In this document: positions 31,184 through 38,866 of the stretch, one piece after another
Numbering within the stretch: position 1 is the stretch's first letter
Layout of the letters: the number at the start of each line of letters is the position of its first letter
Assembly: GCA_913774955.1 (NCBI GenBank)
Contig: CAJYKV010000007.1
Span: forward strand, 333,693 to 397,692
From: an uncultured Acidovorax sp.
Lineage (GTDB): Bacteria > Pseudomonadota > Gammaproteobacteria > Burkholderiales > Burkholderiaceae_C
Direction: 5' to 3'
DNA length: 64,000 bases
Translations under genes and position numbers: made by a program
The notes under the pieces: generated by a model
Databases searched by the model: none
Seen by the model: only the letters and a program-made list of their open reading frames with translations
Told to the model about the DNA's origin: nothing

Positions 31184-33031
31184 TCAGCGCGGCAGCGCGA
31201 CCAGATGGCCCGCCGGTGCGGCGCCGCCGTGGGCCGCGTCGTCGAGCGTGAAGCCCGCCACGGTGCGCGAGAGGTTGTGGGCCTGGTCGTTGAGCACGCC
31301 GGAGGCCGCCGTCGATTCCTCGACCAGCGCCGCGTTCTGCTGCGTGGCGCGGTCCATCTCGGCCACGGCCTGGTTGATCTGGCCGATGCCCGCGCTCTGC
31401 TCGGCCATCGAGCCGTTGATCTCGCCGATGATCTGCGTGACGCGCTGGATGCCGTCCACGATCTCGCCCATCGTCTCGCCCGCGGCGCGCACGCGCTGGG
31501 TACCCGTGACCACGCTCGCGCCCGAGGCGTCGATCAGCGTCTTGATCTCCTTCGCCGCTTCGGCGCTGCGCTGCGCGAGACTGCGCACCTCGCCGGCCAC
31601 CACCGCGAAGCCCCGGCCCTGCTCGCCGGCACGGGCGGCTTCCACCGCGGCGTTCAGCGCCAGGATGTTGGTCTGGAAGGCGATGGAATCGATCACCCCG
31701 ATGATCTCGCCGATCTTCGACGAGGCGCCGGAGATCTCGTCCATGGTGCTCACCGCGCTGGCCACCACCTCGCCACCCTTCAGGGCCGAGGCGCTCGCCG
31801 CATTGGCCAGGCGCGTGGCCTGGGCCGCCGCATCGGCCGACTGCTTGAGGTTGACGGTGAGCTGCGAGAGCGACGCCGACGTTTCCTGCAGCGCGCTGGC
31901 TGAGCCTTCGGTGCGGTTGGAGAGGTCCTGGTTGCCGGCACGGATCTCGTCGGTGGCGGTCTTCATCGACTCCACGCCGTGGCGCACGTCCTTGAGCACG
32001 GTGCCGATCTGCTCCACGAAGGCGTTGAACGACGACGCGATCTGCGCCACCTCGTCGCGGCCCGAGACGGGCAGGCGCTGGGTCAGGTCGCCGCCGCCGG
32101 AGCCGATGCGGTCCATCGCGTCGCGCACCTGCGAGAGGCGGCGGAACGACGTGGCCGTGAGCAGTGCCGCGACACCGGCCGCGGCCAGCGCCAGCAGCAC
32201 GATCGCGATGGCCAGGGTGTGCAGCACGCTGCGCAGGCCGGCCGTGGCCTCGGCCTTGTCCAGCGCCACGACGAGCGTCCAGTCCGTGCCCTGCACGGGG
32301 CGGCCCTTGAGCAGCTTGGCGGTGCCGCCCATCTCCACCTCGACCGGCTTGTCGGCCGTGGCGAGCGACGCCATGGTGGCAGGCGTGAGCAGCGGAGAGA
32401 TCTCGGTGACGGGCTTGAGTGCCAGCTTGGCATCGGCATGGGCCAGCACCTGCCCGTCGCTGTTCACCACGAACCCGAAGCTGCCCGGCGTGGGGCGGAT
32501 GGCCGCGACCACCTCGCGCACGCCGTCGAGCGGCACCGCGCCGCTCAGCACGCCCTCGAGCTTGCCGGCGCGCAGCATGGGCGCCACGAACGCCACGTAG
32601 GGCACGCCGGTGGTGGAATCGCCGTAGGGCTTGGTGACGGCCAGCTTGCCGGCCTGCACCGCGGTCTTGTACCAGGGCCGCGCGGTGGGATCGTAGCCCG
32701 CGGGTGTGGTCGTGGTGGAGAAGAAGGTCTTGTCTTCCCAGCCCACGGTGGTGATCGGGAAGCCGTTGGCCTTGCCCATCAGGGCCACGTAGCGCTGCGG
32801 ATCGCCCATCTCCACGGCTGCGGCGGTCGCCTCCACCGCCCGGGCCTTGGCGGCCACCCACTGGTCGACGGCCATCGCATTGCCCGCCGTTACCGCGTTC
32901 AGGTCCTGCTCGATGGTCTCGAACGTGCTGGAGCGGGTGATGCTGTACGTGGCGGCCCCGGTGACCGCCAGGGCACATACCACGGTAGCGGTGCTGATGA
33001 AGAGAATTTTGGAGCGCAGTGTCTGGAGCAT
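31184..33031 (-). CDS. Methyl-accepting chemotaxis protein with dCache sensor
   Basis: YDPTARPWY Cache motif, [34 protein letters not shown]. Confidence 0.95.
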
Positions 33032-34573: not shown

Positions 34574-34775
34574 GGTTGGGGGGCGTTACGAGGTGAGCGC
34601 TGGAAGCGCAGTGTTCGTGATCTCGCGCTGCGGCCGATGCCGATACGCGCCGTGTGCTGGCATGCCGTGATGGCAGTTGTCCGTGGCACTGTCAAACCCG
34701 TTCTTCAATGCCTCAGTGAGTACCGTGCCTCAGCCAAGATGGGTTTGCAATTGGTAACTTTTCGTCTGCTGCTGC

Positions 34776-34814
34776 ACGGGTGCTGGCTGCGGCGGGAAGT
34801 TCATAACACGCATC
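34776..34814 (+). mobile_element. IS5 right-end remnant
   Basis: CACGGGTGCTGGCTGCGGCGGGAAGTTCATAACACGCATC matches the last about 39 bp of the IS5 at 37997-38035 (one substitution, one insertion), same orientation. Confidence 0.8.
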
Positions 34815-34906
34815 TAGGCCGATGCGGTTCATGAACAGCTTTAAGGTGAAATCCCAGGCGCGCCCAGTCCGGGAGAACGGCAAATGGAAGCCCAAAAAAT
34901 TTTTAT

Positions 34907-35185
34907 CTATTTATTTAATGCATTGTCAATGATTGAGAGATACCTAAAAACTTGATCGCGGTCACTATCTTTCTCTTTGTTTGATAAATCTGAATATTTG
35001 GTATGCGCCTGCCTTTCCCACTTCTCAACAAGATCAGGCGGGATAACTAAAGATCCATCGGCTAGTTTTTTGCACTTTGAGTGCATATATTTTTGCCAAT
35101 GAGACCATCTCTCATGCTCGATGTCTGCAAGCACTTCCACAATAGCCGATAGGTCGGAGCTGATCATGTTTTGCGTATTGGTCAT
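34907..35185 (-). CDS. Small RyR-repeat-like protein
   Basis: 92 aa; LADIEHERW and YSDLSNKEKDSDR resemble the RyR repeat pattern LAxxxHxxW...YxxLxxxEKxxDR; TAATG overlap with the caspase stop. Confidence 0.6.
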   Translation of the reverse strand: MTNTQNMISSDLSAIVEVLADIEHERWSHWQKYMHSKCKKLADGSLVIPPDLVEKWERQAHTKYSDLSNKEKDSDRDQVFRYLSIIDNALNK

Positions 35186-36171
35186 TAAATCCTTCCTAGA
35201 GCGGCAAGGCTTCTGTAATGCTCGCCGAGTGCCGTTAATTTGACCGATTTACTACCCATGGCAGCGTAGTACATGTGCTCCGCCTCCAGGGGAACAACAA
35301 GACCTACACGGTTGAAGTTTTGCAAGATTTTGAAAATTGGTGTTTTGAGAGGGTCAGGTGATGGAATGCTCATATCATCACTGCCATTCCTCGCAGGTTC
35401 GTAGGTGGGATCTAAGGGAAAATGATATCCGGGCGACGGGAAAAATTCATTGATCCTTCGGAGTTCCGTTGTTAGCAGTGGAGGTTGAACCTTACGAAGA
35501 GAAATAAAGCGCTTTACGTTTGTTTTGAAAACTGGGCGCTGTTCGCTCCAAGCGCCTAATGATTGATCGATGTGAGCATAAATGCTACCCGGCGAGACAT
35601 CGCCAACTAAGTTGGCCGCCGCACCGGTTAAAGCATTTACTAGTAAGTTGGTAAAAACTCCGCCACCACCACTCTCAAGTGCGTACTGATCTTTTGTTGA
35701 GGCTGTCAGGATCGTTACGCCATCATTTATCTCAGCAATGCTGTCGTTAAGAGCAGACGCCCCAGCAATGCCGCCATGGCAGCTATCGAGGATAATCACC
35801 TTATTGGCTATCTTGGACTTATTCGCCAAGACCATTATTTCTGCCAAAGAAACCCCGTCGTTACCTTCGGAATCAACATCCGATGAGCATATGTATCCGC
35901 CGGTTACGTCGAAGTGTCCATGTCCAGCGAAGTAGAGTAATGCAATGTCTCCTGTGTCAGAGAATAGTTGGGCAATATTGTCTTTCAGCTGTTTTTTGGA
36001 TATTGCATTGTTTGTGTCCGTGCTGCATATCTGTTTAACCTCGAAATTTCTCGATCCATCTGCGTGAAATTCAAGTAATGCGCCAACTCTTGAGGCGTCA
36101 TTGACACAGCCATAAAGTGGAGAAACTTTTGAGTAGTAGTTGACGCCAACTACTAAAGCTTTTTTGGTCAT
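35185..36171 (-). CDS. Caspase-like protease (peptidase C14) with C-terminal accessory domain
   Basis: [24 protein letters not shown]84G, ILDSC131HGG, GGGVFT; ATGA overlap with the upstream TIR gene. Confidence 0.93.
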
Positions 36172-36539
36172 AGCGAATCAATCCAAGAGGCTATATTTTC
36201 CCATGTCCAAGACATTGTTTGAACATTTGGTAAAGAAGTTGAGTCATTCTTATAAGCCCAAATGCCTCGAACGTTTTTCCCTTCTTCCTTTGCGCAAGCA
36301 ATTTCCCACTTTTGCCCTGTCGAGTTTAAAGAGTTTTGGGTGGATATCACCAAAACACCATCGGCTCTTTTTATTCTAGTTCTGACTTTTGTCTTCCAAT
36401 CCTCTTCGTATGCTTCTTTAACGGACATGTCTATATATTCAAAAGGACTGCGTGTATTAAGGGATTGTCCTTTGATCATGTCGCGAATCCGTTCATCCTC
36501 GATGGCAAAGGCTACAAAAATGACTTTTTTATTACTCAA
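36168..36539 (-). CDS. ThsB-like short TIR protein (MTH538/DUF1863-type)
   Basis: TTG start after AAGGA; [25 protein letters not shown]79I catalytic-type Glu. Confidence 0.82.
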
Positions 36540-36548
36540 GATATTCCT

Positions 36549-37040
36549 TTAGAGTTGACCCAGCGAACGACGAAGTTCTTGGTAGAAAGTCTTCGTTTCC
36601 CTTTCCGAAAAATTCTCAAGGACAAGACCTGCTGTACTGCGCGATACAGTTCTTTGGCGAGTTATGGCTGCTGACTGCCTTGCATATTCATCCAAATCTC
36701 GGTCGCTTGTAAGGTAGGGCCATTTTTTGAGATATTCAGGAACATCTACCGCCCTGTTTGCATAGGTGGCTAGCGGAAAGTCTTTTTCGCTTGCAACACC
36801 TATTTCCCATGGCACCCACCAAGAGTCCTTTGTGGCATATGAAATTACGGCAATCAATTGATTGCACTTGCCCATCTCGGCCTTCAAGTGGTCCGCTAGT
36901 TCGTATCCGTTTTTGTACAGCGCAGTATCTACGACGTCTAGATATGTTTCGATGCCATGGTTGATTCTCAGATGGTTTGCCACTCCGAGAGCGGTTGTTG
37001 AATCTTCTTTCTTGTGAGAGATAAATATTTTTGACTTCAT
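36549..37040 (-). CDS. TIR domain protein (TIR_2-like)
   Basis: KIFISHKKED, YLD, SWWVPWE79IGVA; start placed at ATG 37040. Confidence 0.9.
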   Translation of the reverse strand: MKSKIFISHKKEDSTTALGVANHLRINHGIETYLDVVDTALYKNGYELADHLKAEMGKCNQLIAVISYATKDSWWVPWEIGVASEKDFPLATYANRAVDVPEYLKKWPYLTSDRDLDEYARQSAAITRQRTVSRSTAGLVLENFSERETKTFYQELRRSLGQL

Positions 37041-37082
37041 ATTCAAAAAAATAGTGAGACCAGGAGGTTGACCGCTTTTATA

Positions 37083-37109
37083 ATTATGCAAATTATTGCT
37101 GAATGTCAA
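37083..37109 (-). promoter_or_regulatory. Candidate sigma70 promoter of the TIR-caspase operon
   Basis: Perfect TTGACA (37109-37104) with CATAAT 15 bp downstream (short spacer) in AT-rich DNA. Confidence 0.4.
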
Positions 37110-37171
37110 CTTAGTATTTTCCAGTAGGCGTTCATTGACCGCAGCCGCTTACCGCGCTAGGTCGTGATATA

Positions 37172-38035
37172 GAGCGTGTTATGGACTTTGGGCCCGTGGG
37201 CGCGAAGCCAAGGGTAGAGTTTGCAGATGCTCCGCAAGCCCTACCCGACGGACGTCAGCAATGATGAATGTAGCCTCGCTGCGCCCTACCTGACCTTGAT
37301 GGACCAGCACGCTCCCCACCGCGAGCATGATCTGCGCGAAGTCTTCAACGCCCTGCGCTGGCTGGTGCGCGCGGGAGCGCCATGGCGAATGCGCCCAATG
37401 ATCTGCCGCCGTGGGAGGCGGTCTACCAGCAGAGCCGGCGCTGGCTGGACGCGGGTTGCTTCGAGGCGATGGTGTCTGACCTGCGATCCATCATCCGCTT
37501 GGCACAAGGACGCCAAGGTCAGCCAGCGCCGTCGTGATTGACGGGCGCACGCTGCAATCGAGCTGCGAAAGCGGCCCACGCGCAGGCTACGACGGCTACA
37601 AACGCAAGCGTGGCAGCAAGGTGCACATGGCTGTGGGCCACCTGCTGGCGGTGTATGTCACGCCTGCAGGCAAACAGGAACGTGCGCAAGTACAGCGCCT
37701 GTGCGGAGACGTGCAACAGGCCACGGGCCACACGGTGAAACTGGCTTGGGCCGACCAGGGCTATACGGGGGAAGCGCCATCTAAGGCAGCGCAGGACAAC
37801 AGCATCAACCTGCAGATCGTGAAGCTGCCCGAGGCGAAGAAGGGCTTTGTACTGCTGCCGCGGCGCTGGGTGGTGGCGAGAAGCTTAGGTCGGCTGACGA
37901 GGCTTCGCAGGCTCTCACGGGACTATGAGCGGTTGCCGGAAGTGCTCGGCGAATTGCATTTCTTGGTCTTCGCTGTGCTGATGTTGCTCTCCGTCCCACG
38001 GGTGCTGGCTGCGGCGGGAAGTTCATAATACGCTC
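37172..38035 (+). mobile_element. IS5 family (IS1031-like) insertion sequence, defective
   Basis: 864 bp; IRL GAGCGTGTTATGGACTT vs IRR (rc) GAGCGTATTATGAACTT, 15/17; transposase RKPYPTD, YDGYKRKRGSKVH, ADQGY, LLPRRWVV. Confidence 0.92.
37227..38028 (+). pseudogene. IS5 transposase pseudogene
   Basis: 1-bp deletion near 37393; the usual DTL of AVDTLG is missing; catalytic WVVE reads WVVA (GCG at 37876). Confidence 0.85.
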
Positions 38036-38467
38036 TACACTGTATTTGGCCGTTGGAGCGATCCGTTGGACGATTTCTACGGTGCAATGGGGGAGGCGCA
38101 GATCAAGGTCGCTGTGTCTGGCGTGGTCACTCCCCGAGGTCCGGGACGCGCGCAGGTAGAGGTCGACGAATTGGGGTTTTATTTGCGAGATTCCTACGAT
38201 TTCAACGACGGCAATTCTTTCATCTCGCAGCCGCTGGGATGCTGGGGCTTCGAGGGCATGGAGTGCGGTCTTCGAACGAGCATGGATGTACCCATTTCGG
38301 ACACCGTGGTCGATGAGGAGCCTTCGGTTGTGCAAGGCTACAAATACGTTGTTCAAAACGCCCATTTCCGCGAATGGAGCGAGAAAAACCAGAAGGGCGG
38401 CGACTTCATGGTGTTGTCCAATGTGCACAGGGTGCGATTGCCATTCCCTGTAAAACTGGAGTGGTGA
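38036..38467 (+). pseudogene. 5'-truncated DUF6402 family gene (C-terminal half)
   Basis: YTVFGRWSDPLDDFYGAMG... aligns from Y155 of the 8375..9268 protein, about 70% identical by hand count; begins exactly at the IS IRR. Confidence 0.88.
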
Positions 38468-38482
38468 ATTGATGGTTGAAGT

Positions 38483-38866
38483 ATGAATGGAAAACGACTG
38501 GTGAGATGGACCGCCGTTGCGGTGTCGTTGCTGATCGTGGTCGGGTATTCCGCAGTCCCAAGGTACGATCGCAGCCACTATAGCCCGCGGCATGTGTACC
38601 GGCTCGATTATTACGAAGCCTCATGGCTGCAGCGGCTCATGCACTGGGATATGAAATATCCCCATGTGATCCGCTTGTACCGCGTCCAACCAGAAACCCT
38701 GTTGGGCGAAAGCGACGTCGTGGATCTCTGGTTGAATGGGGACATCAATTGGTGGTTCGACCCCCCGCTCAATGTCGTGCGCGTGGGGCAAGACGTGGTC
38801 TTCGAGAACATTCCTCCAGAGTGCGTCGATTGTCCGAGACTGCCAGACTCCGTTCTCATGCCCTGA
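38483..38866 (+). CDS. Membrane-anchored CxxC protein, DUF6402-associated paralog 4 (putative immunity protein)
   Basis: 127 aa; TM helix; SPRHVYRLDYYE; GQDVVFENIPPECVDCP. Confidence 0.82.
   Translation: MNGKRLVRWTAVAVSLLIVVGYSAVPRYDRSHYSPRHVYRLDYYEASWLQRLMHWDMKYPHVIRLYRVQPETLLGESDVVDLWLNGDINWWFDPPLNVVRVGQDVVFENIPPECVDCPRLPDSVLMP

Follow-up and report, generated by a model that had tools for sequence, protein, structure and literature searches.

A 64,000-nucleotide stretch of DNA from an uncultured Acidovorax sp. (assembly GCA_913774955.1, contig CAJYKV010000007.1, positions 333,693 to 397,692; its whole length is referred to here as the window) carries an operon of four genes that encode two TIR proteins, one caspase-like protease and one 92-residue protein resembling a ryanodine receptor (RyR) domain. 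On balance, we favor reading this operon as a variant of the type IV Thoeris system of anti-phage defense that encodes, in addition to a second TIR sensor, a host protein that binds or hydrolyzes the system's own signal and thereby sets a threshold or serves as an off-switch. Type IV Thoeris was published as a two-gene operon of a TIR and a caspase (Rousset et al., Science 2025; bioRxiv 10.1101/2024.10.24.620036), and how its core works is already known; what appears undescribed is the RyR-domain partner, along with its linkage to the protease throughout a clade. The genes, and the spacer between the first two, are arranged as follows:

36549-37040, minus strand: TIR1 gene, 163 amino acids from ATG
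36540-36548, minus strand: TIR1/TIR2 intergenic spacer AGGAATATC, 9 nt, with a Shine-Dalgarno-like AGGA ahead of the TIR2 TTG
36168-36539, minus strand: TIR2 gene, 123 amino acids, TTG start
35185-36171, minus strand: caspase-like C14 protease gene, 328 amino acids
34907-35185, minus strand: RyR-like protein gene, 92 amino acids, last gene of the operon

A preliminary description of this DNA had noted four coupled minus-strand genes, and all four open reading frames are indeed present and intact. The junctions it described can be read directly in the sequence, such that the TIR1 stop codon TAA is followed by the nine-nucleotide spacer and the TTG start of TIR2, the TIR2 and protease genes overlap by ATGA, and the protease and RyR-like genes overlap by TAATG. 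The contrast in base composition that it drew between operon and flanks is likewise real, the operon being 44.0% GC (its single genes lie at 39-46%), the flanks 68-70% and the whole window 68%, and only its figure of about 40% for the operon was slightly low.

The TIR2–protease pair

The earlier assignment of the locus to a TIR-to-caspase system of the type IV Thoeris kind is borne out by Pfam matches, by the adjacency of TIR and protease genes across genomes and by invariant active-site residues, and we consider it highly likely that this is what the locus encodes. TIR2 scores 25.5 bits against Pfam ThsB_TIR, for which the cut-off is 21.2, and the protease matches Peptidase_C14 at 71.5 bits (E 1.1e-19), both of which exceed the curated thresholds. 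A PADLOC run, which the preliminary description had proposed as a check, returned ThsB for TIR1, ThsB for TIR2 and caspase for the protease. The genomic context of the protease was surveyed at 80 loci drawn from a species-representative genome collection, 78 of which could be evaluated for an upstream TIR and 74 for a downstream RyR-like gene. A TIR2-like gene lies directly upstream of the protease at 64 of those 78 loci, with homologs at E values of ~1e-50 to 1e-63. Of the two TIR proteins, it is TIR2 that represents the canonical type IV Thoeris ThsB partner of the protease.

Both proteins of this pair retain the residues expected of active enzymes. The tripeptide W78-E79-I80 is present in each of the two TIR proteins, as previously claimed, and in TIR2 the catalytic-type Glu79 lies in a KWE79I motif of which W78-E79 is invariant across 91 homologs. 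The protease dyad named in the same account, H84 and C131, is found in the motifs GH84GH and DSC131H, and in alignment H84 falls on His86, the catalytic histidine of Arabidopsis metacaspase-4. An alignment of 18 family members shows G83-H84-G85-H86, D129, C131-H132 and many C-terminal positions of the protease to be invariant. In the founding study of type IV Thoeris, PsTIR E79Q and PsCaspase C129A were null mutants (Rousset et al., Science 2025; bioRxiv 10.1101/2024.10.24.620036). Compared with typical family members, the window protease has two extra residues before its cysteine, arising from an N-terminal residue and an SEGNDG insertion, and for this reason PsCaspase C129 corresponds to C131 of the window protein. 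The operon resembles the published systems in keeping both the TIR Glu79 and the protease cysteine of those null mutants, as well as in its location on mobile DNA. It differs from them by an unrelated second TIR gene upstream and by the conserved, coupled RyR-domain gene downstream.

The C14 fold that had been predicted for the protease was recovered by structure search. When an AlphaFold2 (AF2) model of the protease was submitted to Foldseek, 70 structures matched at E <= 0.001, and each of the 50 that were listed is a MALT1 paracaspase, a metacaspase or caspase-1; the model derives from a shallow alignment, has a predicted local distance difference test (pLDDT) score of 57.7 overall and is confident for residues 1-130 only. 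The C-terminal domain (residues ~205-328) contains no large gaps across the 18 family members and holds the invariant segments QRPVFKTN, LDPxYEP and LGEHYR. This domain is the proposed signal receptor of the protease.

The protease has more than 7,900 homologs, and nearly all among those listed are 328 amino acids long. Among these relatives the window protein is an outlier at ~65% identity, which sets it apart from the published systems. It is 63-66% identical to all of the listed relatives alike, whereas the relatives are mostly far closer to one another (88% mean column identity over 18 sequences). This equidistance, together with the AT-rich codon usage, points to a donor lineage on a long branch that is absent from the databases searched. 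An identical copy of the operon is present in a Logan contig (L081), where the automatic gene call gives TIR2 as 86 amino acids from an internal ATG in place of the 123-residue TTG-initiated form. The short TIR of such operons may thus be under-called or mis-started in annotations.

The 92-residue protein resembles RyR domains

The fourth protein is quite probably a true, if remote, RyR-domain homolog, and the case is made by its family as a whole. All 16 homologs encoded at genome loci match Pfam RyR (PF02026; best E 4e-5), any other family being matched by one of them at most, and 64 of 149 diverse representatives match it at E <= 0.01 (best E 1.9e-5), with competing families matching at most four each. 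Profiles built from these two sets were searched against 177,635 PDB sequences. For the 16-sequence profile, the 14 best matches are repeats of RyR1, RyR2 and RyR3, insect RyR, and a Bacteroides single-repeat protein named as a putative ryanodine receptor (best E 2.2e-6), and weak non-RyR matches appear only beneath these 14. The 149-sequence profile matches 13 sequences at E <= 1, all of which are RyR domains, with a best full-sequence E of 2.8e-7. The profile alignments span both hallmark motifs of RyR domains, LAxxxHExW and YxxLsexEKxxDR.

Conservation within the family converges on the same motifs. Across 173 relatives, comprising 93 operon-linked and 80 stand-alone sequences, H24, W27, W30, L67 and E71 are invariant, and D75 is invariant except for one D-to-N replacement in a stand-alone copy. 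A further set of residues, E23, R26, H29, H35 and D43, is conserved at 98-100% in the operon-linked group as against 25-65% in the phage stand-alone copies, a difference whose cause may be functional or may simply lie in the narrower diversity of the linked copies. The AF2 monomer of the 92-residue protein is predicted at a pLDDT of 92.5 and consists of four helices and a small hairpin. RyR repeats act as dimers or tandem pairs, and the native unit of the 92-residue protein is probably a dimer.

Linkage of the RyR-like gene to one protease clade

The RyR-like gene is not peculiar to the window genome but is a conserved third gene that marks a clade of the proteases. It lies directly after the protease gene at 15 of the 74 evaluable genome loci, and the genomes that carry it include Achromobacter, Qipengyuania, Bradyrhizobium, Paracoccus, Caulobacter, Micromonospora, an acidobacterium, Leptolyngbya and Saccharibacteria. 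When the 80 closest metagenomic relatives of the 92-residue protein (53-67% identity) were inspected, the protease was found directly upstream in 76; three of the remaining four sit at a contig end with less than 20 bp upstream, leaving a single true exception (L221). The distance between the protease stop and the RyR-like start is at most 12 nt, or the two genes overlap, at 85 of 92 loci.

In a neighbor-joining tree of 128 proteases, which is a quick distance tree, the RyR-linked proteases form essentially one clade. Because the metagenomic loci in this tree were picked via the RyR gene, the genome-only counts are the unbiased ones, and by those counts 12 of the 16 genome loci within the clade have the gene, while only two loci outside it do (L020 and L059). 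The window protease branches at the base of the RyR-linked clade, beside a highly conserved group that has no RyR-like gene (L002-L011).

Most phage relatives stand alone

An exhaustive profile search for the RyR-like family returned 5,962 cluster representatives at E <= 0.001, of which 4,046 reach E <= 1e-10, and many of the representatives are 100-250 amino acids long with extra N- or C-terminal segments. Relatives are encoded on 141 IMG/VR contigs. In the best 80 of these, 79 copies stand alone with no TIR or caspase gene within 4 kb, and the exception (L093) is a TIR/TIR/caspase/RyR locus. Cultured Microcystis phages also carry a copy at ~40% identity, as in phage LMM01 at 32394-32624 of NC_008562, and one further relative (P0163) adjoins a terminase gene and a gene resembling T7 gp5.9. 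Operon-linked copies occur within prophage-like regions as well. In a tree of the 173 sequences, linked and stand-alone copies fall into two groups with few crossings in either direction, such that L020 and L059 lie inside the viral cluster and L095, L112 and L125 lie inside the linked cluster.

The predominance of stand-alone copies in phages is a pattern expected of anti-defense genes and, by analogy, may indicate that role here. The sampled phage stand-alone copies have no known anti-defense genes beside them and instead neighbor ordinary genes for a portal protein, an endolysin or a DNA methyltransferase. Among the stand-alone phage relatives (L091-L170 of IMG/VR; P0164-P0311), representatives extend to ~250 amino acids and the stop-to-stop open reading frames of viral contigs to ~500.

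A proposed brake on Thoeris signaling

A defense that kills cells by means of a signal needs safeguards against accidental firing, and the RyR-domain gene coupled to the protease gene is a concrete candidate for such a safeguard. To our knowledge, no host-encoded safeguard for Thoeris is known. How would such a protein act within this operon? We hypothesize that phage infection would lead TIR2, by way of Glu79, to convert NAD+ into an isomer of cyclic ADP-ribose (cADPR), which in the characterized systems is N7-cADPR and which we infer to be the signal here. This isomer would activate the caspase-like protease with its His84 and Cys131, presumably through the C-terminal domain, and the active protease would then cleave cellular proteins such that the infection is aborted. 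TIR1 would act as a second, unrelated sensor and signal synthase of the ThsB type. The 92-residue protein would bind the system's own signal in a pocket formed by His24, Trp27 and Asp75 and would either sequester it or hydrolyze it to ADP-ribose (ADPR). By removing the signal it would establish a threshold for activation or act as an off-switch, in the manner of a ring nuclease, and the stand-alone phage relatives would turn the same activity on the host.

We put a negative regulatory action of the 92-residue protein on the signal at evens or slightly better. The broader statement, that a clade of type IV Thoeris systems encodes a RyR-domain binder or hydrolase of N7-cADPR and that the phage relatives are a second widespread anti-type-IV-Thoeris family, we hold to be plausible but a little on the doubtful side.

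A precedent for RyR domains in this role is RyDEP, a mycobacteriophage RyR-domain glycosidase that opens 2'cADPR and 3'cADPR to ADPR by means of a His75 and Asp117 catalytic dyad, while Trp78 stacks against the adenine and the phosphates are contacted by His100 (Lopez Rivera et al., bioRxiv May 2026, PMC13232231). Six of the eight RyDEP homologs tested bind signals without cleaving them, two having been characterized as nanomolar sponges, and both the cleavage and the sponge mode defeat Thoeris (PMC13232231). Highly conserved RyDEP homologs differ in their mode, and the window protein may be either a sponge or an enzyme. RyDEP is, and the window protein is predicted to be, a small four-helix protein related to PF02026, and the window protein keeps the H-x-x-W motif and the Asp of EKxxD, with the spacing of H24-x-x-W27 identical to that of RyDEP His75 and Trp78, a match made by motif. 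Both are also tied to the cADPR signaling of Thoeris, and many relatives of the window protein, like RyDEP, are stand-alone phage genes. The window protein differs in being host-encoded within a defense operon, in the middle of its sequence (HWQxYMHxK...DGSLxIP as compared with GWxYG...KxHP in RyDEP), in a direct similarity to RyDEP and its eight homologs that is not significant, and in its expected ligand, N7-cADPR.

Two other small proteins invite comparison. TadIV-1 (T4 vs.3) is a 92-residue phage sponge for N7-cADPR, and it has no recognizable domain, is confined to the Straboviridae and is reported to differ in structure from the sponges already known (Chen et al., Nat Commun 2026, PMC13243611). 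It shares its length with the window protein and sequesters the type IV Thoeris signal. As a homolog of the RyR-like protein it was rejected on its description and on the PDB profile matches, among which no protein so named appears, and not on a direct sequence comparison. Liu-DS6 is a five-gene operon that joins Pycsar to type IV Thoeris, and it carries an uncharacterized fifth gene after the caspase whose deletion barely affects defense (NAR 2026, PMC13069673). The resemblance consists of a small gene directly downstream of a type IV caspase. The identity of that fifth gene with the RyR-like gene was also rejected, given that its 140-residue counterpart in the same five-gene layout of E. coli ET210 (L257:4493-4915) has no RyR motifs.

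The coupled fourth gene had been regarded in the preliminary description as no part of the known system, and the literature searched agrees: neither a host-encoded Thoeris safeguard nor a RyR-domain gene within a Thoeris operon is described there, the TIR-systems survey and the TadIV-1 paper included. Host-encoded removal of a messenger is familiar from type III CRISPR systems, in which the host's ring nucleases Crn1-3 and Csx3 break down the cyclic oligoadenylate that serves the system as its signal, an activity that viruses reuse as anti-defense. By analogy, the RyR-like protein may remove the messenger from within the operon, as ring nucleases do in or near theirs, and so limit self-damage and reset the system; the folds and ligands of ring nucleases are unrelated to those of the RyR-like protein, and the analogy is a functional one. 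Selection for such a brake can also be envisioned, as the E. coli type IV Thoeris operon is slightly toxic upon induction (Rousset et al., Science 2025; bioRxiv 10.1101/2024.10.24.620036).

If this proposal is correct, Thoeris immunity would have its first signal brake encoded by the host, recognition of cyclic ADP-ribose by RyR domains would extend to the N7 isomer, and the link that has been proposed between bacterial immune signaling and the way cADPR regulates the ryanodine receptors of animals would be strengthened. The proposal further predicts what is targeted by a very large unannotated phage family, namely the 5,962 cluster representatives that mostly stand alone in the viral contigs sampled, and it would offer a natural pair of host and phage homologs in which one fold can be studied on both sides of the arms race.

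Evidence against the proposal and alternative explanations

Several observations weigh against a signal brake. The 92-residue protein itself scores only 19.8 bits against Pfam RyR (E = 9e-4, residues 7-85), which is below the cut-off of 27.4 and leaves it a remote homolog, not a curated member, of the family, and the best per-domain E of the 149-sequence profile against the PDB is only 0.0013. A Foldseek search of the PDB and BFVD with its AF2 monomer found no significant match and no RyR structure. When the family was compared with eight RyDEP-family sequences, hhalign returned a 7% probability over 15 columns, and the family hidden Markov model scored ~0 bits on all eight; the sole segment that hhalign aligned does set D75 on RyDEP Asp117. 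The position of RyDEP His100 is apparently occupied by Trp56, as judged by spacing alone. The RyDEP preprint makes no mention of N7-cADPR, type IV Thoeris or host-encoded copies, and the ligands tested in it were 2'cADPR and 3'cADPR only (PMC13232231). The linkage in N7-cADPR is N-glycosidic and not ribose-ribose as in those two isomers. Lastly, ~80% of type IV loci work without a RyR-like gene, so the gene is not essential.

The sub-threshold Pfam score, the lack of a RyR fold in the Foldseek results and the non-significant similarity to the RyDEP set would also be expected if the RyR likeness were spurious or vestigial and the protein bound no ligand, acting instead through contacts with other proteins; it might be an antitoxin-like inhibitor, for instance, or a substrate sacrificed to the caspase and set free upon activation. 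A small gene coupled to a toxic effector often encodes an antitoxin. However, two independent profiles single out RyR domains from the entire PDB set, the invariant H-x-x-W and D match the ligand pocket of RyR and RyDEP by motif, and thousands of stand-alone relatives have no caspase partner, which argues against a caspase-specific antitoxin; we therefore consider this explanation unlikely. Slightly less unlikely, in our estimation, is that the protein acts as a positive component, whether as a co-receptor or carrier of the signal, as a converter of the TIR product to the active isomer or as a protector against sponges such as TadIV-1. Co-inheritance with one caspase clade and translational coupling fit a stoichiometric partner of this kind, and the polar residues conserved in the linked copies alone (E23, R26, H29, H35 and D43) hint at more than sequestration, unless their conservation just mirrors the lower diversity of that set. 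What speaks against a positive role is that a metabolite fraction from infected cells expressing the TIR sufficed in the founding study to activate the protease in caspase-only lysates, that the window caspase retains its full conserved C-terminal domain, and that every characterized RyR-domain relative removes the signal and none relays it.

The brake could also have a different beneficiary, such that the RyR-like gene is a captured phage anti-Thoeris gene that serves a mobile element, for example a prophage or island, as an off-switch for that element's abortive-infection module or that neutralizes the system altogether. In the tree, some relatives cross from phages to operons and others the opposite way, several linked operons lie in prophage-like or viral contigs, and the window operon is flanked by insertion sequences (IS), all of which would suit a captured gene. 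Its linkage to the protease is nonetheless old and stable, extending through one large caspase clade over several bacterial phyla with the coupling kept in 85 of 92 loci, and all four window genes are intact with their catalytic residues, whereas a permanently neutralized system would be expected to decay; this origin thus strikes us as improbable. Finally, the operon could be a TIR/caspase module for programmed cell death or stress with a non-phage trigger, and its neighbors, a DctA-type transporter, a chemotaxis receptor and a peptidase, are indeed non-defense genes. Such a module would hardly be expected given that two systems of the two-gene type, likened to the window operon by description and not by direct sequence comparison, block phage T6 and lose defense through catalytic mutations, that the locus has foreign GC content and IS linkage, and that relatives occur in prophages, in an island resembling an integrative and conjugative element (ICE) and beside restriction-modification genes.

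TIR1 as an accessory TIR

TIR1 is a recurrent accessory TIR of TIR-caspase loci. It scores 35.2 bits against Pfam TIR_2, above the cut-off of 28, matches the PADLOC ThsB model at 2.6e-15, has a ~40-residue C-terminal extension and belongs to a separate family of ~158-residue TIR proteins with 530 matches. Its N-terminus, MKSKIFISHKK, agrees with those of its homologs, and its putative catalytic Glu79, in the motif WVPWE79IG, is invariant across 11 of them. TIR1 and TIR2 share 17% identity (E = 1.4).

Relatives of TIR1 adjoin TIR-caspase pairs in all three genomes sampled, although the arrangements vary. The P. aeruginosa loci (L251-L254) have the order TIR(123)-caspase(324)-TIR(159) in an ICE-like island marked by ParB, DUF932, RadC and integrases. 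The index of the collection lists this variant in 426 blocks, and type IV Thoeris with two TIRs is therefore common in P. aeruginosa. Rhizobium grahamii (L255) has TIR158-caspase333 followed by a 91-residue protein, beside a second, divergently oriented TIR129-caspase332 pair, and a CHAT/Peptidase_C25 protein and a 453-residue metallophosphatase lie directly after its RyR-like gene. In Glaciimonas sp. PCH181 (L256) the order is TIR166-165 aa-TIR131-caspase330-Peptidase_S8, which is another accessory set on the same core, and it adjoins a large caspase-helicase fusion protein. The four-gene order of the window itself recurs in Tardiphaga (L043), Bradyrhizobium semiaridum (L056) and a metagenome (L222), as well as in B. 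iriomotense (L040), where TIR2 is frameshifted.

Thoeris loci with several thsB genes were reportedly described by Doron in 2018 and by Ofir in 2021, with the TIRs thought to recognize different phages. The window resembles those loci in having more than one TIR gene per effector and differs in that they were described for SIR2-type (type I) Thoeris, whereas the extra TIR family of the window goes with caspase effectors. By this analogy, TIR1 is most likely a further sensor and signal synthase that would widen the range of phages detected, and we infer that TIR1 and TIR2 may sense different phage triggers.

At several rhizobial loci, in Bradyrhizobium and a metagenome (L040, L056, L027 and L207) and at L255, two TIR-caspase systems lie adjacent to one another, one of them RyR-linked and the other more distant and often divergent. 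At L040 and L027 one of the paired systems contains a frameshifted gene.

Mobile-element context and expression signals

The operon is intact and horizontally acquired. It occupies an AT-rich islet with IS sequences at both ends, and the features of this region are as follows:

34775-34811, plus strand: solo 37-nt copy of the IS right end, 36/37 identical, in direct orientation, just past the 3' end of the operon
34812-37173: AT-rich islet holding the operon, 44% GC, with IS sequences at both boundaries
37080-37109, minus strand: promoter-like site TTGACA-18 nt-AATTAT, in the islet, ~40 nt upstream of the TIR1 ATG
37174-38036, plus strand: IS5-family insertion sequence, ~863 bp, with terminal inverted repeats GAGCGTGTTATGGACTT and AAGTTCATAATACGCTC
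37221-37541 and 37534-38028, plus strand: two overlapping IS transposase open reading frames (Pfam DUF4096 and DDE_Tnp_1)

The IS element has the defining traits of the IS5 family, namely a DDE transposase in two overlapping open reading frames, terminal inverted repeats and a length of ~0.85 kb. Matches to its right end number two in the window as compared with zero expected. Taken together, the complete IS and the solo end resemble either a composite transposon in decay or a capture mediated by the IS. Past the IS, all that is left of a DUF6402 gene is the C-terminal half, which covers profile positions 141-278 of 278. Because an IS lies on one side of the operon, a solo IS end lies on the other and the DUF6402 gene is halved, the operon was probably acquired by an insertion or rearrangement that an IS mediated. 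A possible TA target duplication is also seen at the IS element.

The promoter-like site upstream of TIR1 is a consensus match only, at 10 of 12 positions, and such sites are not above shuffled expectation in the region. No intrinsic terminator was found on the minus strand 3' of the operon. The sequencing runs that contain the operon are mostly plant metagenomes and nearly all DNA, and the single RNA run holds 9% of the sampled words.

Of the genes next to the operon, the chemotaxis receptor falls in a 90%-identity cluster of Paracidovorax/Acidovorax proteins. The segment at 38066-38866 holds the truncated DUF6402 gene followed by a 127-residue open reading frame with no Pfam match, and its GC content of 55% is between the islet and genome values. 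This segment may be what is left of an earlier insertion that the IS cut, possibly a pair of the toxin/immunity kind.

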